From a virus, in the IMG/VR virus record IMGVR_UViG_3300035698_010154, positions 12,835 through 76,834 of that record: 64,000 nt of DNA. One strand, given 5' to 3'. Both the position numbers and the translations under genes were made by a program. Shown in pieces: positions 6,405 to 54,191 of the stretch (position 1 is its first letter; every line of letters begins with the position of its first letter). The notes beneath the pieces are model-generated. The model had not been told where the DNA came from. It saw nothing but the letters and a program-made list of their open reading frames with translations, and made no database searches.

Positions 6405-6960
6405 GGTGTATAAGTAGTGGTATGCTGAATAATAGAGCATTTTTATATTTTGATAGGTGCGATTTGGCCCCCGGGCGGCGTAAAATATATTTTGTAGATT
6501 TTTTAGGTGTATAAGTAGTAGTATGCTGAATAATAGAGCATTTTTAGCTGGGGTGTAGGTGCGATTTGGCCCCTACAGGCGACGTAAAATATGTTTTGTG
6601 TATTTTTGTGTATAAGTAGTGGTATGCTGAATAATAGAGCATTTTTAGGTGTAGGTAGGTGCGATTTGGCCCCGGGCGGCGTAAAATATGTTTTGTAGAT
6701 TATATTTGTATATCACATTTACTATTCCGTAGTAGTAATAGTAGTAAGGTAAGTAGAGATTTTTTAGATGTATATAGCTGGTGTTAGTGCGATTTGGCCC
6801 CTATAGGCGTAAAAATATTTAGTAGATTATATAGTATATCACATTTACTATTTTGTGTATAAGTAGTGGTATGCTGAATAATAGAGCATTTATAGGCGTA
6901 TATAGCTGGGGTAGGTGCGATTTGGCCCCCTACGGGCGGCGTAAAATATATTTTGTAAAA
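6405..6960. repeat. Repeat family A, ~100-130-bp units
   Basis: GTGTATAAGTAGTRGTATGCTGAATAATAGAGCATTT x4 (contains ATGCT-N9-AGCAT dyad); GTGCGATTTGGCCCC..GGCGTAAAA x5. Confidence 0.9.
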
Positions 6961-7069
6961 TATAATCTATAAAATATATAGTATAAACTTGGGTTTGGGG
7001 TGTATTTGGATCATGATTTTGCCACTATTTTTGCCACTAGCGAATTTTCTGTATAGTAGTAGTGGATTA

Positions 7070-7460
7070 CTAAAATCGGTAGGCGGCCAAAAATATTTCT
7101 ATTTACTAGTAGTGGGTAGGTAAATGTGTGTAGGTAGGTAGGTAGGTAGGTAGGTGGGTGTAAGTGTGGGTAAATGTGTGTAGGTAATAGTGTAAATCGG
7201 GCCGCCAAAAATTTCTATTTACTAGTAGTAAGTGAGTGGGTAAGTGGGTAAGTGGGTAAATTGGGCCGCCAAAAATTTTTATATTATAGTGGTGTACAAG
7301 TGAGTGTAGGTGGATAGGTAAGTATACTGAGTGTGCGAATGTGGGTAGGTAGGTAATAATGTAAATCGGGCCGCCAAAAATTTTATATTATAGTAGTGTA
7401 AGTGAGTACTGAGTAAGTGGGTAATAGTGTAAATTGGGCGGCCAAAAATTTTTATTTAAT
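7070..7460. repeat. Repeat family B with TAGG/GGGTAAGT simple repeats
   Basis: AAATYGG(G)CSGCCAAAAAT x5 near 7073, 7194, 7258, 7363, 7431. Confidence 0.85.
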
Positions 7461-7535
7461 AGTAGTGTAAGTGTGTAAGAGTACTGAGTGACTGTTCAAA
7501 TATGGTAGAATCAAATTACGCCCCTATGCCAACAA

Positions 7536-7655
7536 AATTGCCCAATTCGAGGCACTTTGTCCCCAATTCTTGTAGTTTACCATACTTTGAACCCCCAATT
7601 CTTGTAATTTGCCCAATTCAACCCCCAATTCTTGTAATTTGCCCAATTCAACCCA
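7536..7655. repeat. Repeat family C (CCCAATTC)
   Basis: Perfect 30-bp tandem ACCCCCAATTCTTGTAATTTGCCCAATTCA at 7591..7650 plus partial copies. Confidence 0.9.
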
Positions 7656-7969
7656 CTTTTCTATAATTACAACATATATATTGTAAAAATCGGCATGCGT
7701 ACAACATATATATTGTATATATTCTCACTATGGCGCACGCTACATAGAGCGTACCTACCTACACTTGACCAGATATAGTAAATAATCGCCTCAAATAATG
7801 AGGCGAAGTAGGTGGTGGCGTTTTGTGTATATGTGTGTATGTGTATGTGTAGGTGGTGGCGGCGAAGTAGGTAAATATATAGACATTGTGTATATGTGTA
7901 TGTGTATATGTATGTGTAGCGAATAGAGTAAGGTAGGCATGTAGGTGGGGGGTAGGGGGTGACAATAGG

Positions 7970-8052
7970 TAAAGCGCTATGTAGGACAATGGGTAAAATT
8001 ATGTAGGACAATATGAAGCGCTATGTAGGACAATATGAAGCGCTATGTAGGA
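7970..8052. repeat. Repeat family D
   Basis: AAGCGCTATGTAGGACAATATG-like tandem units, about 4 copies. Confidence 0.85.
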
Positions 8053-8085
8053 GAGAGAGATATATATAGGGTGGGTGTAAGGGTG

Positions 8086-8250
8086 CGGCTCCAGGGGGGA
8101 CGTGAAATCGGGGTTATATGGCTCCAGGGAACGTGAAATCGGGGTTATATGGCTCCAGAACGTGCGAAACGGCTCCAGAACGTGAAATCGGGGTTATATG
8201 GCTCCAGAACGTGCGAATCGGCCCCAGGGAACGTGAAATCGGGGTTATGC
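8086..8250. repeat. Repeat family E
   Basis: GGCTCCAG(GG)AACGTGAAATCGGGGTTATAT-like tandem units. Confidence 0.85.
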
Positions 8251-40009: not shown

Positions 40010-41533
40010 TCAAAGGGTGCAGCCCTCAAAGACACACCCTTTGAGTGATGCCGGGGAATAGGATTGACCGCTATCGGTAATTCCACGAAGTGGATGAGGA
40101 TACTCATACGGAGTGTACCACAATTCCCAGATATCAGTTGGTGTGCATTTATATAGATTGCCAGAAATTGGGCTTACAGGACTCGCGCCAATCATCCCTG
40201 TCAAGTCGCTGCATGATTGATCTGTTACCCAGTATCCTACCCCCGTTGCGCAACTCCACGGAGTAGGTAGAGCAGATCCGCATCCAACCCCACTTGTACC
40301 ATCAAAAGCTGCGTCATAATTAAAAAACTCTGTATTCTCTGCTAATTCAAGCGGGTCGTTTGCTGTTGTTGTTGTTCGATTTTCATAGTCCATCGGAACG
40401 CCAACTTCAGCCCCACCAACATTAACAGCCCCGGTTTTTAGTGCTCCGGAAACAGACACACGATTATTTATAAAATACGAGTCATGAACTTTCTGACAGA
40501 TACAAGCATCGGTGCAAGTTTGGCGAGTAGTGCCTTGATCCTCGACACACCTTCCCACTGGATTTGTGTCTGACGTTGCTAAGTCGCTCCATTCTTCCCA
40601 AATAGAAAACCCACCACTTGATACTAAGACGTTGTTTAAATAAATATTCTTCCCGCCACGAACTTTAGAACCTACACTTGGGCCGGTAGCGGCAAAATTG
40701 TTTCCATACACTTCTGTTATTTGAGGCCCATATATAAAACCCAGTTGGTTTCCGTGTGTTTCAACGTAAGTATCGCCCCCATTTAAAGAACCAGTAACAG
40801 TATTATATCGTACTACATATCCGTAACCCTCATTCCCGCCACCGCAGATCAATCCAGGCCCACTAAACGAAAACGTATTATCTTCAATGTACCAACCCGA
40901 TCCGGAGCCGAGCGTCATTCTGTCGTTTGTAAATGCAGCATGACCGACACCGTCTGGATAGCTTGCATTAGAATCTGCAAGGGTGTTGCTATAAAATACG
41001 CCATGGACGTAACCATCGACCTCAACCGCCCTGTGGATATTAGTAAATTTATTGTGATGGATTTTCACTCGTTTAATGGGAGGGGTACTAAGGTTTGTAA
41101 TATCAATCCCGTATTTATAGCTCATCCTGGCATTACCGACAAACGTAATCCCCGAGACTTCAAAGGTTCCAGAATCAGCAAGTGAGTCGGTGTTAGCAAT
41201 AGCCGTAACGTCCGGTGTGTACTCAAAGAACCCTTCGCCGGTTGAGTTGTCAGTGAAGTTAAGCGTCAAGAATGTGACATCAATACCAGCACCTTGAATT
41301 ATGCAATCTTTTGTTATTGGAATCCCTGTCGTAAACGCACAATCTCCAGTAGCGCAATCAGGGATTATAATTGTATCACCATAGTCTAATATGTCCACGC
41401 AATCCTGAATATCTGTTTGTGATGCACTTGCACATGTAAGCGTAGGAGAGGCATCGGTACAAACTGCAAAAGCTCCATCGAAAGAAGGAATGAATATTGA
41501 CAACAAAGCTATTAAGACAAGCGTTTTTTTCAT
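40010..41533 (-). CDS. Secreted right-handed beta-helix (pectin-lyase-like) protein
   Basis: Signal peptide MKKTLVLIALLSIF..AFA; IHHNKF, IEDNTF, VRYNTV, EVYGNNF repeats; YTPYEYPHPL tail. Confidence 0.6.
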   Translation of the reverse strand: MKKTLVLIALLSIFIPSFDGAFAVCTDASPTLTCASASQTDIQDCVDILDYGDTIIIPDCATGDCAFTTGIPITKDCIIQGAGIDVTFLTLNFTDNSTGEGFFEYTPDVTAIANTDSLADSGTFEVSGITFVGNARMSYKYGIDITNLSTPPIKRVKIHHNKFTNIHRAVEVDGYVHGVFYSNTLADSNASYPDGVGHAAFTNDRMTLGSGSGWYIEDNTFSFSGPGLICGGGNEGYGYVVRYNTVTGSLNGGDTYVETHGNQLGFIYGPQITEVYGNNFAATGPSVGSKVRGGKNIYLNNVLVSSGGFSIWEEWSDLATSDTNPVGRCVEDQGTTRQTCTDACICQKVHDSYFINNRVSVSGALKTGAVNVGGAEVGVPMDYENRTTTTANDPLELAENTEFFNYDAAFDGTSGVGCGSALPTPWSCATGVGYWVTDQSCSDLTGMIGASPVSPISGNLYKCTPTDIWELWYTPYEYPHPLRGITDSGQSYSPASLKGCVFEGCTL

Positions 41534-41880
41534 GGAGTTTCCACCGTTGTTAATGCTATATTTTGATAATGAACCTTATCACCACTCAAGCCTGATTTTA
41601 TTGTTAGAGCAATACCAACAGCCCAGTTCAAATGATCCTTATCTTCATCTAACTTCTTTCTAGCTCTATGTCGCCTTAGATCCACAAGTAGGCCCAAGCT
41701 GAACTCCTCACATTCATAAATATGTGGAATATATGGAACATCATCCTCTTGATTATTTATAAAATCTTGTACTTCTTGAAGAGTCGGTGTCCAGTAGTAT
41801 GAGTCCGTTGGTAGTGTCCAATATAATTCAGGCCATTGCTCTTTTATTTTTTCTTTGATTTCACTAAATTTCACTCTCAT
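41530..41880 (-). CDS. Papain/transglutaminase-like protein, possibly C-terminally truncated
   Basis: YECEEFS and HYQNI motifs; ends abruptly where GC-richer DNA begins. Confidence 0.45.
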   Translation of the reverse strand: MRVKFSEIKEKIKEQWPELYWTLPTDSYYWTPTLQEVQDFINNQEDDVPYIPHIYECEEFSLGLLVDLRRHRARKKLDEDKDHLNWAVGIALTIKSGLSGDKVHYQNIALTTVETP

Positions 41881-41895: not shown

Positions 41896-41942
41896 TTATT
41901 TAGCCAAAAATTTGTTTACATTATTCATTTTTTATGATAATA

Positions 41943-41950
41943 TATAAATA
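41943..41950 (+). promoter_or_regulatory. Late promoter TATAAATA for gp16-prkA
   Basis: Exact consensus before the GAGG RBS of gp16; a GTTTACA box lies just upstream. Confidence 0.7.
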
Positions 41951-41968: not shown

Positions 41969-42400
41969 ATGGAAATCGACCGACAAAATTTAGAAGAAGA
42001 ATTTGATATGGAGGGTTTTAATAGTGACGTTGAAAACTTAGAGCCGGTAAATCCAAATGATCCAGAAAAAGTTATCAAATCGAATATAGAAAGAGCAGAA
42101 AGGGTGCTCGATATTGTAGAAAATGAATTACAAAGAGGGAATATTACGCCACGTATGGCTGAAGTCGCCGGGGTACTTATAAACGCCGTTACGGCGTCAT
42201 CGAAGGAACTCATAGCCGATAAGAATTATAAACTCTATTTACAAACTCGGCGAGATAGTATACAATATAAATACGATGAATTAAAATGGAAGAAAAACAA
42301 GAAGGAACAGCCGGTTAATCAGAACTTGATTATCGCGAACAGAGAGGATATACTTAAAATAATTGGCAAAGAAGAACCAAAACAAATTATAGAAAAATAA
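41969..42400 (+). CDS. gp16: Terminase small subunit (T4 gp16-like)
   Basis: TPRMAEVAGVLI motif; NQNLIIANREDIL; size. Confidence 0.75.
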   Translation: MEIDRQNLEEEFDMEGFNSDVENLEPVNPNDPEKVIKSNIERAERVLDIVENELQRGNITPRMAEVAGVLINAVTASSKELIADKNYKLYLQTRRDSIQYKYDELKWKKNKKEQPVNQNLIIANREDILKIIGKEEPKQIIEK

Positions 42401-42422
42401 TAAGTGCAGAAAGGAAATAAAA

Positions 42423-45400
42423 ATGATTAGTAACAGTTATAGTGATTTTAGTGAAATAATTGTCAAACAAAAAAGTGAATCAAAGCCTTTTAAACAATGG
42501 GAAGGAACAATTCTAGACTATCTAAAATTGGTAGATGAGGACAAAAGTATTGCAGACTTTGCATCAAGCCGAGTTTATAATATGATGATGGAGTCAGGAA
42601 CAGAAGAAGTAGATCGATCTCTATTAACTCAAGGATATGATGATCTCGTAAACTACAACTTTTTCAATGATAAGTTGTATGGCATCAAAGAACCCATACA
42701 TGATATGCTGAAATTTTTGAAGGCCGCATCAAGGCGAACAGAAACAGGTAAGAGAATTCTGTTACTCGTTGGCCCTGTGAGTTCTGGTAAGTCCGAAACA
42801 GTCAAACTTATCAAAAAGGGCCTTGAAAAATATGAGAAAGATAAGTATGCCATCAAGGACTGTCCTATTCATGAGGAACCATTACATGCAATCCCAGATG
42901 ATGATAGAGCATTCTGGGAAGAACGACTAGGACGGAAGATTGAAGGAATGTTATGCCCTAAGTGTCAGCAAAATATTGATAAGAACTATACCAATGATGG
43001 TATTGTTCAATGGGATAGTATTCCAGTAGAAAAGATCAGTATTTCGGAGCAACGAAGGGTGTGTATTGGTACGTTCCAGCCTTCTGATCCAAGTTCACAG
43101 GATATTACTGAACTCATTGGTCGAGTTGATACTGCTAAACTATCAAAGTTTGGTGAAACTGATCCAAGAGGTTATAAGTTTGATGGAGAGCTGCAGGTGG
43201 CAAATGGTGGTATGATTGAATATGTAGAGCTTCTAAAAGCTGATATCAAGTTTCATTATGTTCTTATCACAGCCGCACAGGAACAACTTATCAAGTCGCC
43301 TGGTTTTCCACAAATGTACATCGATACATTGATCACTGCTCACAGTGTAGTTGGTAATACACCAATACCATATAGAAAAAATGGACAAGTTTATTTTTCA
43401 ACAATAAAAGAAATGACTGAAAAAAATGATACAGGCATAGAAGTTATTGCTGTTAATATGGATACAAAGAAACCAGAGTGGACTTGGGTTAATTCTTTTT
43501 ATTCGCATCCATTTACTGGTAAGTTAATAACGTCTATACAAAAGAATGGCTTTGTGGAAACAACTCATAATCATTCTATATACTCAACAGATTATGAAAC
43601 ATTTTATCCAACAGAAATGAAGGATATGCTATGCTTAAGAAGTATACCACAAACAGAAAAGATTAATGAATTTCATATAGATTTACCATCTCATTGTGAA
43701 AATAACAATGGAATTGGTAGAGTATCTGATGTGGAAAAATATCAAGGTAATGGTCAATACAGAAAAAATACTGTATGTACATATTATGATGATACTGAAA
43801 AAATTAAATCATTATTAAAACTAATGGCTTGGTATATAACAGAAGGACATTTAGTTAAAGGTAATGTAGAAAAAAGATCGTGTAATGAGGTAGTTATTAG
43901 CAATCAAGATTTAACTGAATTAACAGAATTAAAGAATATTGTTGAAAAACTATCAAATCATTCACCATATCTACAAGACAGAAGTAAAGAAGATGATAAA
44001 ACTAGTAGATTAAGATTGAACACATATATATGGAAATCCATTATGGAATATAATTGTGGTAAATATTCTATCAACAAAAAAGTTCCAGATTTTGTTTTTG
44101 GTCTATCTGATAAGTTGAAGAAATATTTTATTAATGAGTTAATCAAGGGTGATGGATTTGGTAATATAGATGATAAGTTTGGTTATACAACAGTATCTAA
44201 AATGTTAGCTTCTCAATTTACATTTCTTTTATCACAAGTTGGTATAGATTTTAGTGTATATACTGATCATACATCATCTGGTAAAAGATATTTCCAGATT
44301 CGTAGAAGAAATAGTATTAGAAACGATATTAGCGTTAATAAAATTGAAGAGTATGATGTTGAAAATGAAATAGTGTATGATATTGAATGTGATGGAAATC
44401 ATTCATTTACTGGTGGTGTTGGTAATGTTGTATGTCATAACACGAATCAGACTGAGTTTGATTCATTCAGAGCAGACAAGAAAAACGAGGCTCTGCATGA
44501 TAGAATGTATATCGTCAAATGGCCTTACAATCTGAGGGTTGATGATGAAATCAAGATCTATGAAAAGATGATCCGCGAGTCTGACTTTAATGACATCCAT
44601 GTAGCACCTGGAACTCTAAAGGTTGCCGCTCAATTCGCAATCTTGACAAGGCTCTACAAAAGTACGAGTGTATCGTCCTTGATCGAAAAAATGAACATTT
44701 ACAATGGTGAGATCTCAGAAGAGTTCAAGAAAACAGATGTTGATTTGAAACACTTGATCGAAGAAGGTCGCAAGAATGGTGAGGGCATGTCCGGTATTTC
44801 TCCACGGTTCGTTATTAACGCCATGAACATAGCACTTGGGCAGAAAGAATCAAAGAACTGTATCAATGCTATTGATATCATCCGTGCCTTGAGAGATAAC
44901 TTTGCACATCACATTGGAATCGCAGAAGAAGACATTGAAAATTATGTCACTATGTTGATTGGTAGTAAAGATTCTGTATCAGCAAAGTATAAGGAATTCG
45001 CAATGAAGGAAGTTAACATGGCGTTCTTACACGCCTATGAAGAGCAAGCCGAGTCATTGTTTGAAAGGTACATGATCAATGTTGAGTCATTCTGTAAAAA
45101 GGAACAAGTACAAGATTCGATCACAGGTGAATACGGTGATCCTGATGAAAAGGTTATGCGGTCTATTGAAGAACTGATCGGTGTTCCTCAAGAGGGCAAA
45201 GAGACGTTTAGAAATGGTATCTTTGTCTATAAGGCTGACTTCCTTAGTAGGGGTGAGGCATTTACCTATAATGACTACGATCCTATCCGTGATGGTATCG
45301 AAAAGAAACTCATTTACGATCTGAGGAACGTTGTATCATTGTCTTTGACGGACTCAAGTTCAACGAATCCAAAATCCAAGGCTAAACGAAATCGAGCAGT

Positions 45401-45488
45401 GAAGACACTTTTGAAAAAGGGTTACTGTGAAAAGTGTGCAAACACGTTGCTGTCCTTCATCGGTGAAACCATTCGCCGAGATACCTAA
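42423..45488 (+). CDS. prkA: PrkA/YeaG AAA+ family protein containing an intein
   Basis: Walker A GPVSSGKS, CPIHEEPL, FDGELQVANGG, EALHDR, GMSGISPRF; 655 aa after intein removal. Confidence 0.92.
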   Translation: MISNSYSDFSEIIVKQKSESKPFKQWEGTILDYLKLVDEDKSIADFASSRVYNMMMESGTEEVDRSLLTQGYDDLVNYNFFNDKLYGIKEPIHDMLKFLKAASRRTETGKRILLLVGPVSSGKSETVKLIKKGLEKYEKDKYAIKDCPIHEEPLHAIPDDDRAFWEERLGRKIEGMLCPKCQQNIDKNYTNDGIVQWDSIPVEKISISEQRRVCIGTFQPSDPSSQDITELIGRVDTAKLSKFGETDPRGYKFDGELQVANGGMIEYVELLKADIKFHYVLITAAQEQLIKSPGFPQMYIDTLITAHSVVGNTPIPYRKNGQVYFSTIKEMTEKNDTGIEVIAVNMDTKKPEWTWVNSFYSHPFTGKLITSIQKNGFVETTHNHSIYSTDYETFYPTEMKDMLCLRSIPQTEKINEFHIDLPSHCENNNGIGRVSDVEKYQGNGQYRKNTVCTYYDDTEKIKSLLKLMAWYITEGHLVKGNVEKRSCNEVVISNQDLTELTELKNIVEKLSNHSPYLQDRSKEDDKTSRLRLNTYIWKSIMEYNCGKYSINKKVPDFVFGLSDKLKKYFINELIKGDGFGNIDDKFGYTTVSKMLASQFTFLLSQVGIDFSVYTDHTSSGKRYFQIRRRNSIRNDISVNKIEEYDVENEIVYDIECDGNHSFTGGVGNVVCHNTNQTEFDSFRADKKNEALHDRMYIVKWPYNLRVDDEIKIYEKMIRESDFNDIHVAPGTLKVAAQFAILTRLYKSTSVSSLIEKMNIYNGEISEEFKKTDVDLKHLIEEGRKNGEGMSGISPRFVINAMNIALGQKESKNCINAIDIIRALRDNFAHHIGIAEEDIENYVTMLIGSKDSVSAKYKEFAMKEVNMAFLHAYEEQAESLFERYMINVESFCKKEQVQDSITGEYGDPDEKVMRSIEELIGVPQEGKETFRNGIFVYKADFLSRGEAFTYNDYDPIRDGIEKKLIYDLRNVVSLSLTDSSSTNPKSKAKRNRAVKTLLKKGYCEKCANTLLSFIGETIRRDT
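43344..44441 (+). mobile_element. Intein with LAGLIDADG endonuclease in PrkA (366 aa)
   Basis: TAH|SVVGNTP..TTHNH..LMAWYITEG..LIKGDG..VVCHN|TNQ; AT-richer than the extein. Confidence 0.88.
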
Positions 45489-45495
45489 GAATCGT

Positions 45496-45503
45496 TATAA
45501 ATA
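45496..45503 (+). promoter_or_regulatory. Late promoter TATAAATA upstream of yeaH-spoVR
   Basis: Exact consensus just after the prkA stop. Confidence 0.6.
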
Positions 45504-45566
45504 AACACTCTTGACGATAATCTTACAGTTTCACCAATAAATAATGGGGGGAAGGAAAAAGATATA

Positions 45567-45854
45567 ATGTGTAAAGATAACGAAGAATATGAGGAGTGTG
45601 CTTCTGATGGGTTTGATTTCGGAAACGACAAGAGCAAGGCTCAAGTAGTATACGAGGACATAAGATCTATAATCTATAATTTTATTATGGTGTGCTTCTA
45701 TAAGATCAGAAGCACACCAGTTTATAGGTTTATTCATATCGGGTTTATGATTTTATGGGCTATGATATCATGGACGGTTGCATTAGGACAATATGACATA
45801 AAAATAATGGATGGTGAGGATGAGAACGTGATCTTCCACCTTCCAAGTATATAA
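45567..45854 (+). CDS. Hypothetical membrane protein
   Basis: Hydrophobic stretch FIHIGFMILWAMISWTVAL. Confidence 0.5.
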   Translation: MCKDNEEYEECASDGFDFGNDKSKAQVVYEDIRSIIYNFIMVCFYKIRSTPVYRFIHIGFMILWAMISWTVALGQYDIKIMDGEDENVIFHLPSI

Positions 45855-45871
45855 TAGAGAAAGGTGGAAAC

Positions 45872-47179
45872 ATGGGAATAATATATCATTCGGACTGGGA
45901 TTTATCAGATAAATCTCGAAAAGATACACAACGTCACCGGGAAAAGATTGACGATGCTATCCGTAGGAATGCTCGTGATGTTATTGGTGAAGAATCAATC
46001 ATTACTAAAAAAGGCAAGAAGACTGTAAGGATACCAGTAAGAGGATTGAAAGATTATCGTTTTGTTCATGGCCAAGGCCAAAGTGGTGGGGCTGGTCAAG
46101 GTGAGGGTAAGCCAGGTGATACAATTGCTAGACGGCAGAAAGAAGGCAAGGGCAATGGTAAACCAAAGCCAGGTAATGAAAAGGGTGCTGACTACATGGA
46201 AACAGAGGTTGACATTGACTATCTTCTAAAAATCATGTTTGAAGATTTGGGTCTACCTTATATTGAAGAAAAGACAAAAGCAACACAGGTCATACCTAAG
46301 GGCTGGAGATTCAAGGCCATATCGAAGAAGGGTATCCCACCAAGACTGCATAAGAAGAGAACAATGATCGAAACAATAAAGAGGAACATTGTTTTGGCTG
46401 CCGCGGTGATGGAAGATACAGGATGTGATGAAGAAACAGCCTACAAGGCACTGAACATGTCGTTCTGTGATCTGAATGACGCCGTTATGATAATTAGAGA
46501 AGATAGAGTCGATCCTGATGCATCGACAGATTTAGTCATAACAGATGATGATATGAGGTTCAAGAAAATCGAACAGATCATAGAGCATCATTCAAACGCA
46601 GTTGTTATTGCCATGATGGATGTATCTGGCTCTATGGATAGACGAAAGAAGTATCTTTGTCGAAGTCTGTTATTCTGGATGACTGAATTTCTAAAGAAAA
46701 CATACGAGCATGTTCAAATAAGGTTCATACAACATACCACAGAGGCTCAAGTTGTTGATGAGGATTCATTTTTCAATAAGGGTGAAAGTGGTGGTACTTA
46801 TTGTTATTCAGCATTTGAATTGGCTAACTATATGATCGATACAGAGTATCCAATAAACGAGTGGAACGTGTATTGTGTATACTGTGGTGATGGTGAAGAT
46901 TTTGATTCCGATAAAACAGTATCACACATACAAAAAATGCTAGATAAAAAAATTAACATGCTGAGTTATATTGAAATACTTATTCATGGTGATTATGGAT
47001 ATGGCGGATCTTTGTTAAATAAGATCAAATCGAAATGGAAGTTCAAAACTACAAGAATAAAGAGAACAGATTTCTTGAAAAATGAAGAGTTGAGATTTTT
47101 GTGTTCTGTAATCAAGGACAAATCTCACATTTGGCCGTGCCTGAAACATATGCTTTTTAAAAAGAAAGGTAGTAAATAA
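45872..47179 (+). CDS. yeaH: YeaH/YhbH (DUF444) vWA-domain protein
   Basis: RHREKI, Gly-rich GQGEG, MIDAS MDVSGSM, ESGGT, DGED. Confidence 0.92.
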   Translation: MGIIYHSDWDLSDKSRKDTQRHREKIDDAIRRNARDVIGEESIITKKGKKTVRIPVRGLKDYRFVHGQGQSGGAGQGEGKPGDTIARRQKEGKGNGKPKPGNEKGADYMETEVDIDYLLKIMFEDLGLPYIEEKTKATQVIPKGWRFKAISKKGIPPRLHKKRTMIETIKRNIVLAAAVMEDTGCDEETAYKALNMSFCDLNDAVMIIREDRVDPDASTDLVITDDDMRFKKIEQIIEHHSNAVVIAMMDVSGSMDRRKKYLCRSLLFWMTEFLKKTYEHVQIRFIQHTTEAQVVDEDSFFNKGESGGTYCYSAFELANYMIDTEYPINEWNVYCVYCGDGEDFDSDKTVSHIQKMLDKKINMLSYIEILIHGDYGYGGSLLNKIKSKWKFKTTRIKRTDFLKNEELRFLCSVIKDKSHIWPCLKHMLFKKKGSK

Positions 47180-47181
47180 TT

Positions 47182-49761
47182 ATGAATAAATCTGAGATGA
47201 ATAGATTGATAAAAGTTGAAGACAAGATCTACCAAATTGCTGATGAAATGAATTTGGAATATGTTCCCATTGAGTTTGACATCGTTCCGAATAAAAAAAT
47301 GATGGAACTCATGGCATACATAATGCCAGGTAACATCAGCAATTGGAAATATGGTAGGGATTATGAAAAGATCCGCACAAGATATGAGAAATCTGACAAT
47401 AATCTGCCTCTTGAAATGGTTGTAAATACTGACCCTTCAAGAGCATATTTAATGAAAGACAATACATTCGCCATTCAGGCACTTGTAATGGCTCATGTTG
47501 TAGGTCATGTTGCCTATTTCACAATGAATAGGCACTTTACACCTACTGATAAAGAAATCATAACAGTACTTACAGAGGCATCAAAGAGATTTAACAAGTA
47601 TGAAAGAATGTATGGTATTGATATAGTAGAAAAAACCATTGATGCCGCACATTCAATTATGTTTCACTCTTCACCATTTGATATGGAACTGGAAAGTGAA
47701 AAGCGTGAACGTATCTTCAAACAGTTGAAAAGAAAGTTCACTTCAACTGGTAATTCAGAGTTTGAGGATTTGATACCTTCGAACAAGCATAAGATTGAGG
47801 AAGATATAGAACTATTCAATAGAAATCTATGGATGAAATTAAGAGGACAATCACCTGTAGAACCAACAGAAGATCTATTGAGATACATAATTGATAACTC
47901 AAGAGCATTGGATGATTGGCAAAAAGACGTTTGTGAGATGATAAGGCAATTAGGTATATACTTCTGGCCCCAAATGAGAAGTAAATACTCAAATGAAGGT
48001 TTTGCTTGTGTTGTTCCGAATTCGCTTGTCATGACTGAAAATGGATTTGTAGAAATAGAACAAGCTGTTGAATATTGTAATAAAGTTGTTGGTATAAACG
48101 GCAGTCTAACAGAAATAAAGAATAGGTATGCTACAGATAAAATAAAGACTATTAAGATAGAAACAAATAGTGGTCTTATTCTTGAAGGTGCCGAATTACA
48201 TAGAATTCTAGTAAGTGATAATGGTGAAAAAGTAGATAAACATCTAAAAGATATAAAAATTGGTGATGAGGTTTTTATGTCAGTTGGTACAAATATATGG
48301 CCAGAAAAACAGGTAGAAATATCAGAAATAGATTCTATACTACAGAGACATCAATTTTCACGGACACAAAAAGTTACAATACCTAATAAAGTGAGTGATG
48401 ATTTATCATATTTTATGGGTTCTATAACAGCAGAGGGTACAATTCTGGATAGAGGTGTTTCTTTCACAAATCAAAATGATTTATATTTAAAGGATATTCA
48501 AGAAATAGTAAAAAATGAATTTGATAAAGATGTAAATATAATACAGAGAAAGGATAGCAATACAAAAGATATAAAAGTATATTCAACACCAGTATTAGAT
48601 TTCTTATTCCAATGTGGATTGACTAATAGTAAAAGTAATGGAAAACAGATACCTTGGTCTATTTTACAAAGCCCAAAGTCAGTAATGTCAAATTTTATTG
48701 CAGGATTTTTTGATGGTGATGGATGTGTGTATTATGATGGTAGATATGCGAGATCTTGTATATTTACAAGCAAATCAAAAAAAATGATAAGACAACTAGC
48801 TATAGTATTATTAAATTATGGTATTGTTGGAAAATTTGCAATAAATAAAAAAGAAGGATATGACGACTGTTATCAATTTGTTATAGCAAAAGGTGAATGT
48901 TTAAAGATATTTTATAATGAAATACCATTCAGAGATAATAAAAAAAGACTTCTCCTAAAGAAAGCAATTGATTCAATTAAATGGACATATCCAATAAAAG
49001 ATACTTGTAAAGTTATTAGTAAGAAATATGGTAAATCAATAAACTATGATTGGAGTATACCTGATGGAAAACATTATGTGGCTCAAGGATTTATAAATCA
49101 CAATACGTATACTCACGAAAAGATCATGTGGCGATTGTTCCAAGATGGTCTTTTAAATAAATCAGATCATGCTCAGTATAACTACTCCAATTCACTTGTA
49201 AAAGCCAAAAGTCCATTGTCATTGAACCCATACCTAGTAGGCTCTAAGATATGGGAAGACATCGAAGATAGATGGGATAAGGGACGATATGGTAGAGAGT
49301 ATGAGAACGTAACTAGTATCAAGGAACGTGACAATTGGGACACGAAGGCTGGTAAGGGCCAGGAAAAGGTTTATGAAGTATTAAGAACTTGCCAAGATTG
49401 GTTCTTTATGAAAGAGTTCCTAACACCCGATCTTGTGAATGATATGGACTTGTATATATATGCCATAAAAGATACTAATATCACTGAAGACTTCGTTGTT
49501 ACGCGGCACAAGGCAAAAGAGATCGCCGAGTTGATTTCAAATAGTTTCGTTCACAATGGAATCCCAAAGATTCAGATTATAGATGGCGGTAATGATGGGA
49601 AAATGCGAATAGAGCATGCATATGCAGGTGTACCATTGGAACCAACATACTGCAAGGAAACATTAAAACACATGCATTTCTTGTGGGGCGGTGATATCAC
49701 ATTGAAAACAAATGATGGGATAAAGGAAATGTTCTATACAGCAGCAAAGAAAGGGTCATGA
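47182..49761 (+). CDS. spoVR: SpoVR/YcgB family protein containing an intein
   Basis: WKYGRDY, EMVVN.DP..AYLM, AHVVGH, NEGFA|..|TYTH, LNPYLVG; 493 aa after intein removal. Confidence 0.92.
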   Translation: MNKSEMNRLIKVEDKIYQIADEMNLEYVPIEFDIVPNKKMMELMAYIMPGNISNWKYGRDYEKIRTRYEKSDNNLPLEMVVNTDPSRAYLMKDNTFAIQALVMAHVVGHVAYFTMNRHFTPTDKEIITVLTEASKRFNKYERMYGIDIVEKTIDAAHSIMFHSSPFDMELESEKRERIFKQLKRKFTSTGNSEFEDLIPSNKHKIEEDIELFNRNLWMKLRGQSPVEPTEDLLRYIIDNSRALDDWQKDVCEMIRQLGIYFWPQMRSKYSNEGFACVVPNSLVMTENGFVEIEQAVEYCNKVVGINGSLTEIKNRYATDKIKTIKIETNSGLILEGAELHRILVSDNGEKVDKHLKDIKIGDEVFMSVGTNIWPEKQVEISEIDSILQRHQFSRTQKVTIPNKVSDDLSYFMGSITAEGTILDRGVSFTNQNDLYLKDIQEIVKNEFDKDVNIIQRKDSNTKDIKVYSTPVLDFLFQCGLTNSKSNGKQIPWSILQSPKSVMSNFIAGFFDGDGCVYYDGRYARSCIFTSKSKKMIRQLAIVLLNYGIVGKFAINKKEGYDDCYQFVIAKGECLKIFYNEIPFRDNKKRLLLKKAIDSIKWTYPIKDTCKVISKKYGKSINYDWSIPDGKHYVAQGFINHNTYTHEKIMWRLFQDGLLNKSDHAQYNYSNSLVKAKSPLSLNPYLVGSKIWEDIEDRWDKGRYGREYENVTSIKERDNWDTKAGKGQEKVYEVLRTCQDWFFMKEFLTPDLVNDMDLYIYAIKDTNITEDFVVTRHKAKEIAELISNSFVHNGIPKIQIIDGGNDGKMRIEHAYAGVPLEPTYCKETLKHMHFLWGGDITLKTNDGIKEMFYTAAKKGS
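48007..49104 (+). mobile_element. Intein with LAGLIDADG endonuclease in SpoVR (366 aa)
   Basis: NEGFA|CVVPNSL..FMGSITAEG..FIAGFFDGDG..FINHN|T. Confidence 0.9.
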
Positions 49762-49791
49762 TAGAGAGAATAATAATATTAAATAGGTAAT

Positions 49792-49824
49792 AAAGGGGCG
49801 GATAATAAAAATCTGCCCTTTTTT
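49792..49824 (+). terminator. Intrinsic terminator after spoVR
   Basis: AAAGGGGCGGAT-loop-ATCTGCCCTTTTTT. Confidence 0.75.
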
Positions 49825-49837
49825 ATGCTCAAGGTTG

Positions 49838-49845
49838 TATAAATA
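49838..49845 (+). promoter_or_regulatory. Late promoter TATAAATA
   Basis: Exact consensus just after the terminator. Confidence 0.7.
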
Positions 49846-49858
49846 AGTATAAGTAATT

Positions 49859-50452
49859 ATGGATACAAAAGACCAATATATAGCAGCTAAAAAACGGTTC
49901 AGATCAACCACACATGGTTCTATGGGTATTCTTATGGAGAAGTATTCCGTGGAAAGAATGGTTGAGATAGGACTATATAAGTGCAGAGCCGCCAAAGAAC
50001 TACTGAGAAGGTATGATCACATTCTTGATGAATATTGGGGTGTAGACTTTTATCTTGAGCAAGAGTGGAGTATAGCAAGAGGACTATACCAGAAAGATTG
50101 GAATGATCTATATGGCTGGGCCTGTTATTTTATGATGTTCTTCAAAAGCTTTAGAGTACTGAATATGTCGAGCAAAGAAGCATCGGATAACTTTAAGTCG
50201 AGGGCGAAGTTTCCTGACTGGGTTCCATTTGACATGGTGTTCATTGATGCCGCGCATGATAAAGATTCTGTGAAGGAAGATATAGGATTGTGGATTGACT
50301 TGATCAAGCCAGGTGGTATCATATCTGGTCATGATTATGGCCAAGGCAGGCATCCAGAAACAGAGACAGCCGTTGATGAAATGCTAGGCAAAGAGAACAT
50401 AAAAACATTACCAGGATTTGTATGGTACATGGAGATACGTAATGAAGTTTAA
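49859..50452 (+). CDS. Class I SAM methyltransferase (Methyltransf_24-like)
   Basis: VEIG, FIDAAH, KPGGIISGHDY. Confidence 0.85.
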   Translation: MDTKDQYIAAKKRFRSTTHGSMGILMEKYSVERMVEIGLYKCRAAKELLRRYDHILDEYWGVDFYLEQEWSIARGLYQKDWNDLYGWACYFMMFFKSFRVLNMSSKEASDNFKSRAKFPDWVPFDMVFIDAAHDKDSVKEDIGLWIDLIKPGGIISGHDYGQGRHPETETAVDEMLGKENIKTLPGFVWYMEIRNEV

Positions 50453-51077
50453 AGAATACATAAATGAAGTCGATTTGGATTTCTCATCATCTTTGAGTTT
50501 TATAATTGATGATGATGTGGTTGATGCTTTATCTAAAAAGCTAAAGAAAGAATGTGCTCCATATCTCAAGGAAATGGGAAAGGGGCGTAAAGAAAATTGG
50601 TTATATAGAGCAACAGAGCATCAATTTGATATTTTTAAGAAATTCACACCTCGAACAAACAGAAAACCACGTAATACGCCAATTGAAATTCATACAATGA
50701 TGAATGATTTATTCAAAAAGAAATTTGGCTGGAAGGCAAGAAGCGAAGGAGTGTTTGCCTCTAGTGATATAGCTCAATTGGAATATGTATACGGTGATCC
50801 ATATATGTTCTTCCCTATAGGTAGTTATAAATATATTTATCATCCTACCATAAGAGATATATTCATGGATATGGACAATGGAAAAATAATTAATGCATAT
50901 GGATATGATGAAGAATTAGCAACAAAATACTTAAATAAAAATATACCAAAATATAAAGACAATAACCTACATCTAGCATACAAGAATGGTGTAGAAGTAG
51001 CATTTAAATGTAAATCATATTATCTGGTTAGAAGATTATATGAGGATGCATTGAAAAAAGAGTGGGGAATGGTGTAA
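50442..51077 (+). CDS. Putative head-packaged protein with possible ADP-ribosyltransferase fold; paralog of 10853..11458
   Basis: Start MKFKEYINE; LYRA, RTNRKPRNT, KFGWKARSEGVFASS, VEVAFKCKSYY. Confidence 0.5.
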   Translation: MKFKEYINEVDLDFSSSLSFIIDDDVVDALSKKLKKECAPYLKEMGKGRKENWLYRATEHQFDIFKKFTPRTNRKPRNTPIEIHTMMNDLFKKKFGWKARSEGVFASSDIAQLEYVYGDPYMFFPIGSYKYIYHPTIRDIFMDMDNGKIINAYGYDEELATKYLNKNIPKYKDNNLHLAYKNGVEVAFKCKSYYLVRRLYEDALKKEWGMV

Positions 51078-51080
51078 CTA

Positions 51081-51968
51081 ATGGCAATAAAATATGACTC
51101 TGTTTTTGTAAAACGCCCGGATGTAGAAATAGAATATACTCCAGAACATATTTCAGAATTACATAAATGTTCTAATGATATAAACTATTTTCTGAAATAT
51201 GTTAAGATAGTCAACCCAGATAAAGGTGAAATAAAATTCTCTCCTTATGATTACCAAGAGGACTTACTTAAAAAATTTAATAAAAACCGTTTCAATATAG
51301 TATTAGCAAGTCGGCAATCAGGAAAAACAAGTATAGTTGCTGTTTATGCATTATGGTACTCAATATTTCATAGTGACAAGAATATTGGTATTGTATCAAA
51401 TAAAGAATCATCAGCTAAAATGATCCTTGGAAGGTTGAAAAGGATGTATGAATGCTTACCTGTGTTCCTAAAGCCAGGCGTGCATGAGTACAGTAAGACA
51501 TTTATAACATTTGACAATCACACTAGAATACTTATCTCTGCTACATCACCAGACGCGTTCCGAGGTGAATCTATCAATCTTTTAATATGCGATGAGCTTG
51601 CGTTTGTGCCAAATAACATTGCTGAAGAGTTTTGGGCTGCTAATTATCCAACCATTTCAGCATCAACTGAAGCAAAAGTTATTATTATCTCTACACCACA
51701 AGGTTTATTTAATTTGTATCATAGAATATACTCACAAGCTGAAGCTGATATGAATAGTTTTGTTCATACTAGAATAGGATGGGAACAAGTTCCTGGTAGA
51801 AATGAAGAGTGGGCAAAAGAGCAAATCCAAAACCTTGGTATGGTTAAATTCAATCAAGAATTTAACTGCGTAACTGGTGATACATATATAGATGTTTATG
51901 ATACTAAAGAAGATGAAGTAAAAATAATCACCATAGAGAATCTTTTTGAAAATTTATATGGTTTATAA
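51081..51968 (+). CDS. gp17: Terminase large subunit N-extein (ATPase) plus 33-aa split-intein N-fragment
   Basis: SRQSGKT, ICDELAF, ISTPQG, FNQEFN|CVTGDTYI.. (Cys1 at 51867). Confidence 0.92.
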   Translation: MAIKYDSVFVKRPDVEIEYTPEHISELHKCSNDINYFLKYVKIVNPDKGEIKFSPYDYQEDLLKKFNKNRFNIVLASRQSGKTSIVAVYALWYSIFHSDKNIGIVSNKESSAKMILGRLKRMYECLPVFLKPGVHEYSKTFITFDNHTRILISATSPDAFRGESINLLICDELAFVPNNIAEEFWAANYPTISASTEAKVIIISTPQGLFNLYHRIYSQAEADMNSFVHTRIGWEQVPGRNEEWAKEQIQNLGMVKFNQEFNCVTGDTYIDVYDTKEDEVKIITIENLFENLYGL

Positions 51969-52164
51969 ACTTGAAAGAGATGATTCATTAATTTATATAG
52001 TAACTACAAATGAGAAAGCATTTAAAAGAAGAGTCAGGAGGTGGTGTTTTCCTTGCCACAAATTCTATCAAAGAGCATTTGTTAAGAAAATCGCTATTAA
52101 ATATAATGTTATACAACAATGTATATATAATATGTTAAAAGGAAGAACTTGGGCGGATGTTTAA
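51946..52164 (+). pseudogene. Degenerate free-standing homing endonuclease (GIY-YIG-like start, HTH end)
   Basis: MVYKL..IYIVTT..RR then IAIKYNV..IYNMLKGRTW; only 72 aa; overlaps both gp17 halves. Confidence 0.55.
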
Positions 52165-53248
52165 AATTAATAAAAGATATAAAATACTAACATCAAATGG
52201 ATATTGCAACTTTGATGGAATCAATATAATTAAATCTAGCAATATTATTAAGATTACTACTGAAGATGATATGGTGTTAAAGTGCTCTAAAGATCATAGA
52301 ATACTTACAAACAAAGGATTCATAACATCTGATAATATTAAAGTTGGTGATTATGTCTCTACAAAGAATGGGCATAAAAAAGTTATAGAAAAGAAAAATA
52401 TCGATGGTGATTTTATTCTATATGATCCTATAAATGTTGAAAATGATAATACTTATTATTCCAATAACATTATATCTCATAACTGCCAGTTTATTGGTTC
52501 GACTCATACTGTACTAAACACATTAACAATTGAGACACTCTTGACAGTATGGACTGAACCAAATTTTACTGATCTGAATGATAGGTTCAGGCTGTGGGAA
52601 AAACCAGAAGATCAATCTAATTATATAATGGGTGTTGATACAAGTAAAGGAACTGGTGAGAACTGGTCAACTATACAGATATTTAAAATGATGAGTATTA
52701 ACCCCGTTGCACTGGATCAAGTTGCTGTATTTGAGGATAACTTAACAGATGTATATGAGTTCTCAGACATAGTTGATCGTATTTCTATGTACTATAACAA
52801 TGCATATATTATGGTAGAAAACAATGGTGAAGGTGCCCCTGTTGTTCAAAGACTATGGTGGGAATTAGAGAATGAGAACCTTGTCAACACAGGATCTAAA
52901 GTAGCGAACCTTGGAATACGAGCAACAAGAACTACAAAGCCAAAAGCTGTTCTGTTAATGAAAAAACTTATAGAGGATGGTAGTGTAAAACTCAATGACA
53001 AGAACACTATAGAGCAACTGAGTAGCTTTATTGAAGAAGGTAATAAGTTCTTTGGTAAGGATAAAGCAGATGATCTAGTGTCTGCTCTATATTGGGCATT
53101 ATATATATTTCAGATGGATATACTTGACGAGGCAATGGGTTTTATAACAAAAAAAGATGAAGAAGCTGATATGTGGGGTGTGCTATCTGATATGGAAAGA
53201 CCAGAAGAAGATTGGAGTTGGTTAAATAATTCTGAAATTTACTCATAG
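52157..53248 (+). CDS. gp17: Split-intein C-fragment (109 aa) plus terminase large subunit C-extein (nuclease)
   Basis: MFKINKRYKILTSNG..YYSNNIISHN|CQFIGS; GVDTSKG, VENNG, DDLVSA. Confidence 0.92.
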   Translation: MFKINKRYKILTSNGYCNFDGINIIKSSNIIKITTEDDMVLKCSKDHRILTNKGFITSDNIKVGDYVSTKNGHKKVIEKKNIDGDFILYDPINVENDNTYYSNNIISHNCQFIGSTHTVLNTLTIETLLTVWTEPNFTDLNDRFRLWEKPEDQSNYIMGVDTSKGTGENWSTIQIFKMMSINPVALDQVAVFEDNLTDVYEFSDIVDRISMYYNNAYIMVENNGEGAPVVQRLWWELENENLVNTGSKVANLGIRATRTTKPKAVLLMKKLIEDGSVKLNDKNTIEQLSSFIEEGNKFFGKDKADDLVSALYWALYIFQMDILDEAMGFITKKDEEADMWGVLSDMERPEEDWSWLNNSEIYS

Positions 53249-53357: not shown

Positions 53358-54191
53358 ATGGCAATAACAAAAATGGATCTAGCAGCTCATATTCGAAGAC
53401 GCTTAGGGGCGCCTCTTATTAAGGTGGAGCTGAGTAATGAACAGATATACGACACCATTGACTATGCTAGAGATAAGTTCATAAAGTGGGCTGTGGGTCA
53501 ATCAACAATTGAAACATTCTTTACATTAGCTCTATCAGCGGGACAAACAATTTATCCATTACCAACAGGTGTCACAGAAATGGTTCATTATAGTGATTCT
53601 GGTGGTGGTTCTGGTGGTGGTATAAACACATTATTTACAATAGATAACTTTATGTATAATAATGGTATGTATGAGGCATTATACAACACATCTATGAGTG
53701 GTGGATTTACGATTATGTCATATCACATTGCCAGAGATTTTCTAAAAACATTATCAAGATATACTCCAAGTAAGTATAATTGGAAACACCATAGGTTTAC
53801 CAATGAATTAGAAATACAGCCAGCACCACCAACAGGAAATGCATTAACTATAACACAAGATGGAACCGAATTCACCATTGATTCACCAGGATTTGTTCTA
53901 ATAAGAGCATATATGATGGAAGGAAGCACTCATGTTAGTGGATGGGCGAATGGCGATAGTGATACAAACTTTTATACAAGTGATTGGATTTTCGACTATT
54001 CTCATGCGATGTGCTTGGTAACACTTGGTCGTATTAGAAGTAAGTTCGCCAACTTTACATCCGTTGGAAATACTGGTATAAGCATGGATGGTGATTCATT
54101 AATAAGTGAAGGTAAAGAAGAAATAATGAAACTCGAAGAAACCCTAAGGCTTGAGGAAGTTTTTGAGGGCCTTGGAGTGGATATCGGGTGA
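53358..54191 (+). CDS. gp13: Neck protein (T4 gp13-like)
   Basis: RRRLGAPLIKVELSNEQI; WIFDY; GRIRSKF; SMDGDSLISEG. Confidence 0.88.
   Translation: MAITKMDLAAHIRRRLGAPLIKVELSNEQIYDTIDYARDKFIKWAVGQSTIETFFTLALSAGQTIYPLPTGVTEMVHYSDSGGGSGGGINTLFTIDNFMYNNGMYEALYNTSMSGGFTIMSYHIARDFLKTLSRYTPSKYNWKHHRFTNELEIQPAPPTGNALTITQDGTEFTIDSPGFVLIRAYMMEGSTHVSGWANGDSDTNFYTSDWIFDYSHAMCLVTLGRIRSKFANFTSVGNTGISMDGDSLISEGKEEIMKLEETLRLEEVFEGLGVDIG

Follow-up and report, generated by a model that had tools for sequence, protein, structure and literature searches.

Among the poorly understood gene sets of bacteria, that of yeaG, yeaH and ycgB, whose first and last members have the homologues prkA and spoVR, is one of the most widespread. 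In six bacteria, yeaG, yeaH and ycgB each showed their highest cofitness with one another (10.1101/072470). The PrkA protein of Bacillus subtilis bound and hydrolysed ATP by means of its Walker A lysine and degraded casein in an ATP-dependent reaction, and a result for a K108A mutant was reported in the same work (PMC9512850). Only in October 2026 was yeaG tied to starvation-induced global proteolysis: the Escherichia coli protein, renamed SpdA, was required for the largely non-specific degradation of cytoplasmic proteins induced by starvation, and SpdA-dependent degradation supplied amino acids and ATP and fed new protein synthesis (PMC13684143). Here, a complete prkA-yeaH-spoVR triad is described from positions 42423-49761 (plus strand) of a 64,000-nucleotide stretch of viral DNA, hereafter the window, which corresponds to bases 12835-76834 of the 76.8-kb IMG/VR contig IMGVR_UViG_3300035698_010154 (completeness ~32% by CheckV). 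Judged from its gene content, the contig is from a distant T4-like phage, and the triad lies between its predicted small and large terminase genes, terS and terL.

All features of this locus are on the plus strand. prkA (42423-45488) encodes a precursor of 1021 amino acids, predicted to be spliced to 655; yeaH (45872-47179) encodes a vWA-type DUF444 protein of 435 amino acids; and spoVR (47182-49761) encodes a precursor of 859 amino acids, predicted to be spliced to 493. An earlier reading of the letters (the original prediction) had placed the triad at exactly these coordinates, and the family matches to it were strong. PrkA matched PF08298 (E = 4e-104) and PF06798 (E = 2e-64), with the AAA match split in two by the intein described below. 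Its Walker A motif is GPVSSGKS (residues 117-124), in which K123 and S124 are invariant, and the sensor-1 Asn was retained together with 101 of the 118 positions conserved in cellular homologues. Through an intein-free relative, PrkA also matched PDB 9xip (E = 1e-112). That entry, like 9xiq and 9xir, contains a solved 692-residue 'Serine protein kinase' (30 chains in the 3 entries); no paper for 9xip was found in the literature search. YeaH matched PF04285 (E = 2.5e-93) over profile positions 5-417 of 418, and its metal ion-dependent adhesion site (MIDAS) residues D250, S252, S254, T309 and D340 were conserved in at least 90% of 85 homologues. SpoVR matched PF04293 (E = 3e-88) and PF24755 (SpoVR_C, E = 1e-10), retained 54 of the 72 positions conserved in cellular homologues and kept both the NEGxA motif and the family invariants H105, H109, E150, E272, H279 and H446. 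Neither YeaH nor SpoVR had solved relatives detectable by sequence, and the SpoVR profile gave only chance-level matches to PDB sequences. Being adjacent, co-oriented and co-inherited, the three genes were classed as a three-gene module.

Each of the three genes is a single open frame, and in that sense the earlier description of all three as intact holds; for prkA and spoVR it depends on intein splicing. Both encoded proteins are ~370 residues longer than their intein-free homologues, and alignment located one insert of 366 residues in each. The PrkA insert (43344-44441; amino acids 308-673) starts with Ser1, ends in His-Asn before Thr+1 and interrupts the AH|TN (sensor-1) motif. The SpoVR insert (48007-49104; amino acids 276-641) starts with Cys1, likewise ends in His-Asn before Thr+1 and lies directly past the invariant NEGFA motif. 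A LAGLIDADG domain was found in both (PF14528, E = 1.6e-18 in SpoVR and 1.6e-4 in PrkA); matches to Intein_splicing fell below the Pfam cut-off. Empty PrkA alleles in 12 close and ~75 wider relatives, and empty SpoVR sites in close relatives, join exactly at the splice points. Class-1 inteins were recognized by Cys or Ser at position 1, a block-B His, a terminal His-Asn, Cys, Ser or Thr at +1, a LAGLIDADG domain and empty alleles joining at the same point. Because of their hallmark residues, their LAGLIDADG domains and the exact empty sites in relatives, the two inserts are predicted to be class-1 inteins with a homing endonuclease, giving predicted mature proteins of 655 and 493 residues, and each precursor must excise its predicted intein for a protein of ordinary size to result.

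The SpoVR site, NEG[FW]A, is also filled in phage loci L135 and L176 and in Chloroflexota/Ktedonobacterales loci L028, L074 and L083 (L numbers denote individual loci throughout), which suggests one homing-site family crossing the virus-cell boundary. Three sites were seen in the PrkA family: at sensor-1, past an SDP motif (phage loci L168 and L169, ~6650-8250) and past VEMLK next to Walker B (Ktedonobacterales L083). The inteins of the window mark functionally critical motifs, sensor-1 in PrkA and NEGxA in SpoVR, and no report of either protein as an intein host was found in the searched literature.

To place the triad among viruses, IMG/VR was scanned for synteny with a YeaH query and then with a PrkA alignment. 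The YeaH scan returned 12 contigs, 52-82% identical, with the order terS-prkA-yeaH-spoVR-terL-gp13. The PrkA alignment returned at least 313 viral contigs encoding a related PrkA; gene order was examined in the best 80 of these, nearly all of which share terS-prkA-yeaH-spoVR-terL. This order, with gp13 after terL, was shared by the 12 close relatives and ~75 further viral contigs; terS precedes prkA in nearly all related loci, and the gp13-like gene follows terL throughout the clade. A scan with terL was made with an alignment query, a single-protein query having reached very close relatives only. Loci whose terL is more than ~60% identical to that of the window have the triad; in L200 and L201 (45-57%), terS stands beside terL and the triad is missing. 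Of 59 T4-like loci in which 3 kb or more precedes terL, only 2 have any triad gene, and both belong to the window's clade. The proposed linkage of the triad to the terminase genes was thus found and is limited to this clade.

Trees were built with 51-74 cellular homologues per protein. In each of the PrkA, YeaH and SpoVR trees the phage clade formed one branch with support of 100, on a stem of 0.77-1.0 substitutions per site and nested in no sampled bacterial group; the best cellular identity to the window PrkA was 42-45%. In the PrkA tree, the protein of Ralstonia phage RsoM2USA grouped with E. coli YeaG and that of phage phiYS40 stood alone on a long branch. The trees suggest that this clade acquired the module once, long ago and in its entirety, with separate captures elsewhere. 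Against the nearest relative, synonymous divergence (dS) was saturated and non-synonymous divergence (dN) was 0.07-0.11, with dN/dS of 0.042 for PrkA, 0.060 for YeaH and 0.07-0.12 for terL; purifying selection on the triad is no weaker than on terL. Contigs from salt-lake metagenome studies that had been filed separately contained identical pieces bridging prkA/orf95, orf95/yeaH, yeaH/spoVR, spoVR/next gene and the intein boundaries (orf95 is a small gene described below). Contig joints from 48513 to 51264 and from 48927 to 50390 were disregarded, having 20-21 letters on one side.

That the phage keeps the whole triad, as originally predicted, is borne out by the shared order in ~80 contigs, the single phage clade in all three trees, dN/dS values of 0.04-0.06 and the retained motifs, and by these signs the module clearly appears functional and old in this phage clade. 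The original prediction had also named the outcomes that would count against it. A recent transfer from one host lineage is contradicted by the long-stemmed monophyletic clade with no nesting, absence from related phages by the conserved order in ~80 viral contigs, and a phage-host chimera by synteny and by the junction-bridging metagenome pieces.

Carriage by other phages was examined in GenBank, in which PrkA was present in 17 of 50,697 phage records: several Thermus phage types, four megaphages of ~600 kb, RsoM2USA and one Enterobacter record. None of these carriers is T4-like and none has the triad at the terminase, and a megablast search of 42000-50000 against GenBank phages gave no match. 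YeaH-like proteins were also found in Bacillus phages. The phiYS40 annotation includes 'SpoVR' and 'serine kinase', the RsoM2USA paper lists the triad genes with guessed roles, and PHROGs families exist for all three proteins, labelled as of unknown function; in neither phiYS40 nor RsoM2USA does the triad adjoin the terminase. The searched literature yielded no functional work on any phage copy. The description of the triad as an undescribed phage system therefore needs qualification: phage carriage is already on record and unstudied, and the T4-like, terminase-linked group is not among the GenBank carriers.

The explanation that best fits these observations is that the phage-encoded version of the YeaG/SpdA module for starvation proteolysis acts, in the course of infection, on the proteins of the host, to which a probability of roughly 0.4 is assigned. 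PrkA would act as an AAA+ ATPase with the ATP-dependent protease activity reported for the family, YeaH as its vWA/MIDAS partner, and SpoVR would contribute a zincin-like metal-binding domain, as modelled. In concert the three would cause cytoplasmic proteins of the host to be turned over or remodelled, and the amino acids and energy so released would be available for making virions, above all where the host is starved of nutrients. The location in the terminase operon would then be an inherited insertion site that provides co-expression and not a sign of a role in packaging. A more specific proposal, considered doubtful, is that the three proteins form one three-part ATP-dependent proteolytic machine in which PrkA would be the AAA+ motor, YeaH the vWA/MIDAS adaptor and SpoVR a non-canonical zincin-like peptidase. 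With its own copy, an entire clade of T4-like phages would convert the host cytoplasmic proteome to amino acids and energy for the production of virions. Such a machine would be the protein counterpart of the host-DNA recycling of T4 and, if real, could allow productive infection of starved cells.

The zincin-like assignment comes from a SpoVR model built on an intein-free relative (L006:11444-12925; predicted local distance difference test (pLDDT) score 88). In a wide VIA-align search, nearly all of the top 50 matches were zincin metallopeptidases (Z 12.2 down to 6). DUF885 was the best (Z 12.2, root mean square deviation 3.4 over 190 residues), and M1, M3, M32, M2, M4 and thermolysin were among the others. 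In the model, H105-x3-H109 lies on one helix, after a beta-sheet, and E150 on a later helix, from which it could serve as the third metal ligand. The ESM Atlas gave no usable neighbour, and a zincin-like SpoVR domain with HVxGH was not mentioned in the searched literature.

Several points weigh against action on the host proteome. The SpoVR motif is HVxGH, with V106 at least 90% conserved, and lacks the canonical catalytic Glu of the zincin HExxH; Foldseek returned no PDB match to the SpoVR model at E <= 0.001; and in VIA-align a chance Z of up to ~13 is possible for helical models. For these three reasons SpoVR as a peptidase is treated as a lead only. The E. coli study tested yeaG alone, not yeaH or ycgB, and YeaG itself was not demonstrated to be the protease (PMC13684143). 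A packaging role would also be consistent with how rigidly the module keeps its place between terS and terL in the clade. The same DNA was present in salt-lake metagenomes, and the stretch was found in no RNA run. The promoter evidence is ambiguous as well: the exact 8-mer TATAAATA was present in 22 of 58 distinct upstream regions of the wider clade, and before terS of the window it overlaps a sigma-70-like element.

The promoter before terS (41915-41950) is composite, a sigma-70-like TTTACA-N17-TAATAT being followed directly by TATAAATA (41943-41950). For comparison, a T4-type late promoter has TATAAATA at -10 without a -35 element and is read by a gp55-type sigma. The copies at 41943 and 45496, on which the claim of late control had been based, were both confirmed; the second (45496-45503) lies 8 nucleotides past the prkA stop and 63 nucleotides ahead of orf95, and a third local copy is at 49838. 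Over the whole window TATAAATA was not enriched (22 found vs 14.9 expected), and 7 of the 14 plus-strand copies were intergenic, with 2.2 expected (intergenic sequence is ~20% of the total). Before terS, the motif was kept in eight loci, down to 55% protein identity, and in those eight a conserved sigma-70-type TTTACA-N17-TAtAAT directly precedes it, the layout being seen in L007, L008, L009, L013 and L014. At the second site the nearest relative has CATAAATA, and the exact motif was found in 12 of 66 prkA-yeaH spacers. Late control is thus upheld as far as the presence of TATAAATA and its conservation near terS go; it is put in question by the sigma-70-like promoter at the same place, by the partial conservation of the exact motif and by a sigma-70-like promoter and terminator before yeaH in some relatives. 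Sequence alone is compatible with late timing of the triad, early timing or both. In the prkA-yeaH interval of one subclade (L009, 8783-10000, and also L010 and L012-L014), 1.2 kb with five or six open reading frames (ORFs) of 60-85 amino acids was observed; ahead of this insert come a terminator hairpin and a sigma-70-like promoter close to consensus, TTTACA-N17-TATAAT with TG.

An intrinsic terminator after spoVR (49792-49828), also part of the original prediction, was confirmed as a hairpin (49792-49822) with a 12-bp stem, a folding free energy of -16 kcal/mol and z of -4.2, plus a U6 tail. A hairpin and T-run were present at the same place in L005, L007, L008, L009-L011, L013 and L014. No hairpin or terminator was found in the stretch between terS and prkA, so these two genes are likely to be co-transcribed, and the predicted transcription unit extends from the composite promoter before terS to the hairpin terminator after spoVR.

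The strongest rival explanation is a takeover of signalling, in which the triad would be a regulatory switch that drives the host into its stationary-phase/dormancy programme, or keeps it from entering, so that the infection can be completed, working either as a kinase-type system or by limited, targeted proteolysis. This fits the first description of YeaG as a Ser/Thr kinase, the conserved signalling pathway proposed by Price et al. for the three proteins, the control of sporulation entry by B. subtilis PrkA and the differences in mutant phenotype between species, as expected for a regulator. However, the B. subtilis study found ATP-dependent proteolysis and no kinase activity (PMC9512850), most cytoplasmic proteins of E. 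coli are turned over less when yeaG is lost, and SpoVR models as a peptidase-like fold, so a switch of this kind is judged unlikely. It is followed in falling likelihood by a packaging or assembly chaperone and by counter-defence.

AAA+/vWA pairs act as chaperones in MoxR systems, and the original prediction had offered a late remodeller for assembly or packaging as one of its two readings; such a machine would mature the head, portal or terminase. In support, practically all clade members have the module between terS and terL, and its co-transcription with terS is probable. However, outside this clade the triad is not linked to the terminase: it lies elsewhere in phiYS40 and RsoM2USA, and the sister T4-like lineages L200 and L201 and 57 more distant T4-like loci are without it. 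The gap between gp16 (terS) and gp17 (terL) also tolerates cargo, because cyanophage S-PM2 carries unrelated small genes there. The motifs retained in the phage proteins are those of cellular homologues, which function in the absence of any phage, and among Pfam AAA+ families PrkA matched AAA_PrkA alone, with no match to a MoxR family. Of the proposed MoxR-type resemblance the vWA partner remains, and the likeness is one of function only; a packaging or assembly role is accordingly rated quite improbable. Lower still is counter-defence, in which the module would degrade or sequester host defence or abortive-infection proteins. Repeated acquisition by unrelated phage lineages would suit such a role, and an activity of the protease type might in principle clear host effectors; against this, no PADLOC defence-model match was obtained for the triad or its neighbours, no anti-defence genes adjoin it, the cellular module is a housekeeping stress system, and to our knowledge that module has no link to immunity. 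A non-functional passenger or an assembly artefact (a chimera or a decaying recent transfer), suggested by the incomplete metagenome assembly and by the Enterobacter phage LAU1, whose yeaG lies at the record edge and resembles host carry-over, is refuted by ~80 independent viral contigs with the same order, the long-stemmed clade in the trees, saturated dS with dN of 0.07-0.11 and the bridged junctions.

The gene upstream of the triad, an ORF of 143 amino acids (41969-42400), ends 22 bp before prkA, as originally stated, and was accepted as a gp16-like terS. Small terminase subunits of this type were sought by a sequence relation to T4-like terS, a length of ~140-165 amino acids, a helical core and a place upstream of terL; ORF 41969-42400 has both the sequence relation and the position. 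All eight family members (8/8) matched phrog_445 and phrog_735, 'terminase small subunit', with a best E of 1.6e-5 and 0.0025 for the window copy; the ORF alone gave no match at default thresholds. Alignment with hhalign to gp16 of S-PM2/C48C1 was colinear and end to end (E = 6.7e-4), with a probability of only 27%, and the AlphaFold model of the ORF was all-helical with low confidence (pLDDT 56). The 219-amino-acid ORF immediately before terL was tried as the small terminase and rejected, being missing in most clade members, whereas the 143-amino-acid ORF is conserved and matches terS profiles.

terL (51081-53248) begins two genes beyond spoVR, in agreement with the original prediction. It was identified by Terminase_6N, Terminase_6C and a HINT fragment, and its product is ~44% identical to cyanophage gp17. 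The gene is divided by an intein into an N-extein with a 33-amino-acid N-fragment (51081-51968) and a 109-amino-acid C-fragment with the C-extein (52157-53248), separated by a 188-nucleotide gap that holds a 72-amino-acid ORF (51946-52164). The junctions read NQEFN|C... and ...SHN|C, with Cys1, a terminal His-Asn and Cys+1. terL is split likewise in L007 and unbroken in L005, L008, L009 and most others. The insert is, by these features, a putative atypical, lopsided split intein, of a layout known from metagenomic TerL genes, that is predicted to splice in trans.

Within the triad, orf95 (45567-45854) encodes 95 amino acids with a single predicted transmembrane helix, hydropathy being highest at residues 54-74. 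Its relatives were found only in the nearest contigs, L006 and L008 (73%) and L007 (47%), and it matched no family. Between spoVR and terL, variable cargo (49838-51077) starts at the third TATAAATA and comprises a methyltransferase-like gene (49859-50452; PF13578, E = 2.8e-10) and the 219-amino-acid ORF (50418-51077), whose region matched phrog_11975/15932, function unlabelled. This cargo is present only in the nearest relatives, and in most clade members terL comes immediately after spoVR, so the spoVR-terL gap appears to be a second variable cargo site. Beyond terL lies the gene for a gp13-like neck protein (head-tail adaptor; 53358-54191), which matched phrog_211 at 1.9e-20. The other T4-like marker genes in the window are those for a baseplate wedge, gp46/gp47-like SbcCD and UvsX.

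Upstream of the terS promoter, a minus-strand block (39608-41880) contains three co-oriented ORFs of 130 amino acids (with weak zinc-ribbon hints), 507 amino acids and 116 amino acids, none of which matched anything in Pfam, PHROGs or PADLOC at E <= 0.01. Its G+C content is ~41.5%, vs 34% for the remaining window. The block is missing from all related loci, metagenome contigs part from the window at 41934-41945, and it looks like a strain-specific cassette inserted just upstream of that promoter. Farther upstream, a small ORF (38760-39053) matched DUF551 (E = 9e-6) and is surrounded by several unannotated small ORFs (38072-39253).

The complete module was captured by at least three or four separate phage lineages. 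This repeated capture, together with strong selection inside the terminase operon of one large clade of uncultured T4-like phages, suggests that the three proteins work as a self-contained unit, to the benefit of a virus. The phage triad offers a compact, host-independent version of the system that is open to testing, and it suggests host-proteome recycling as a so far unexplored type of auxiliary function in phages. The zincin-like SpoVR model adds a testable idea, applicable across the family, for the site of peptidase activity. The interest of the case lies in the breadth of the triad and its tight conservation in the clade, in the fresh link to starvation proteolysis and in the testable hypotheses that it yields.

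Among known systems, the cellular yeaG-yeaH-ycgB module is the closest. The phage proteins belong to the same three families with full-length domains, their genes follow the order found in most of the 63 cellular loci that have all three, and the Walker A motif, the MIDAS and the SpoVR invariants are retained. The phage copy differs in that it stands in the terminase operon of a lytic-type T4-like phage, has inteins in two genes and has small ORFs between prkA and yeaH. The Thermus phages (phiYS40/TMA, phiLo, MN1 and Lalka), RsoM2USA and the ~600-kb metagenomic megaphages likewise have clustered prkA, yeaH and spoVR, but theirs are separate acquisitions, lie away from the terminase and encode proteins 25-35% identical to those of the window. 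AAA+ proteases of the FtsH/Lon type resemble the triad in combining an AAA+ with a peptidase-like domain (FtsH is an AAA+ plus a zincin). Unlike these and unlike MoxR-vWA systems, PrkA has a family of its own (PF08298), the functions are distributed over three proteins and SpoVR lacks HExxH; the likeness to both may be one of mode of action and not of family membership. Of the inteins, those in PrkA and SpoVR correspond to canonical LAGLIDADG inteins, with all class-1 hallmarks and a homing endonuclease domain, and the one in terL resembles AceL-TerL and GOS-TerL, natural atypically split TerL inteins that likewise have a short N-fragment and a long C-fragment (33 and 109 amino acids in the window).

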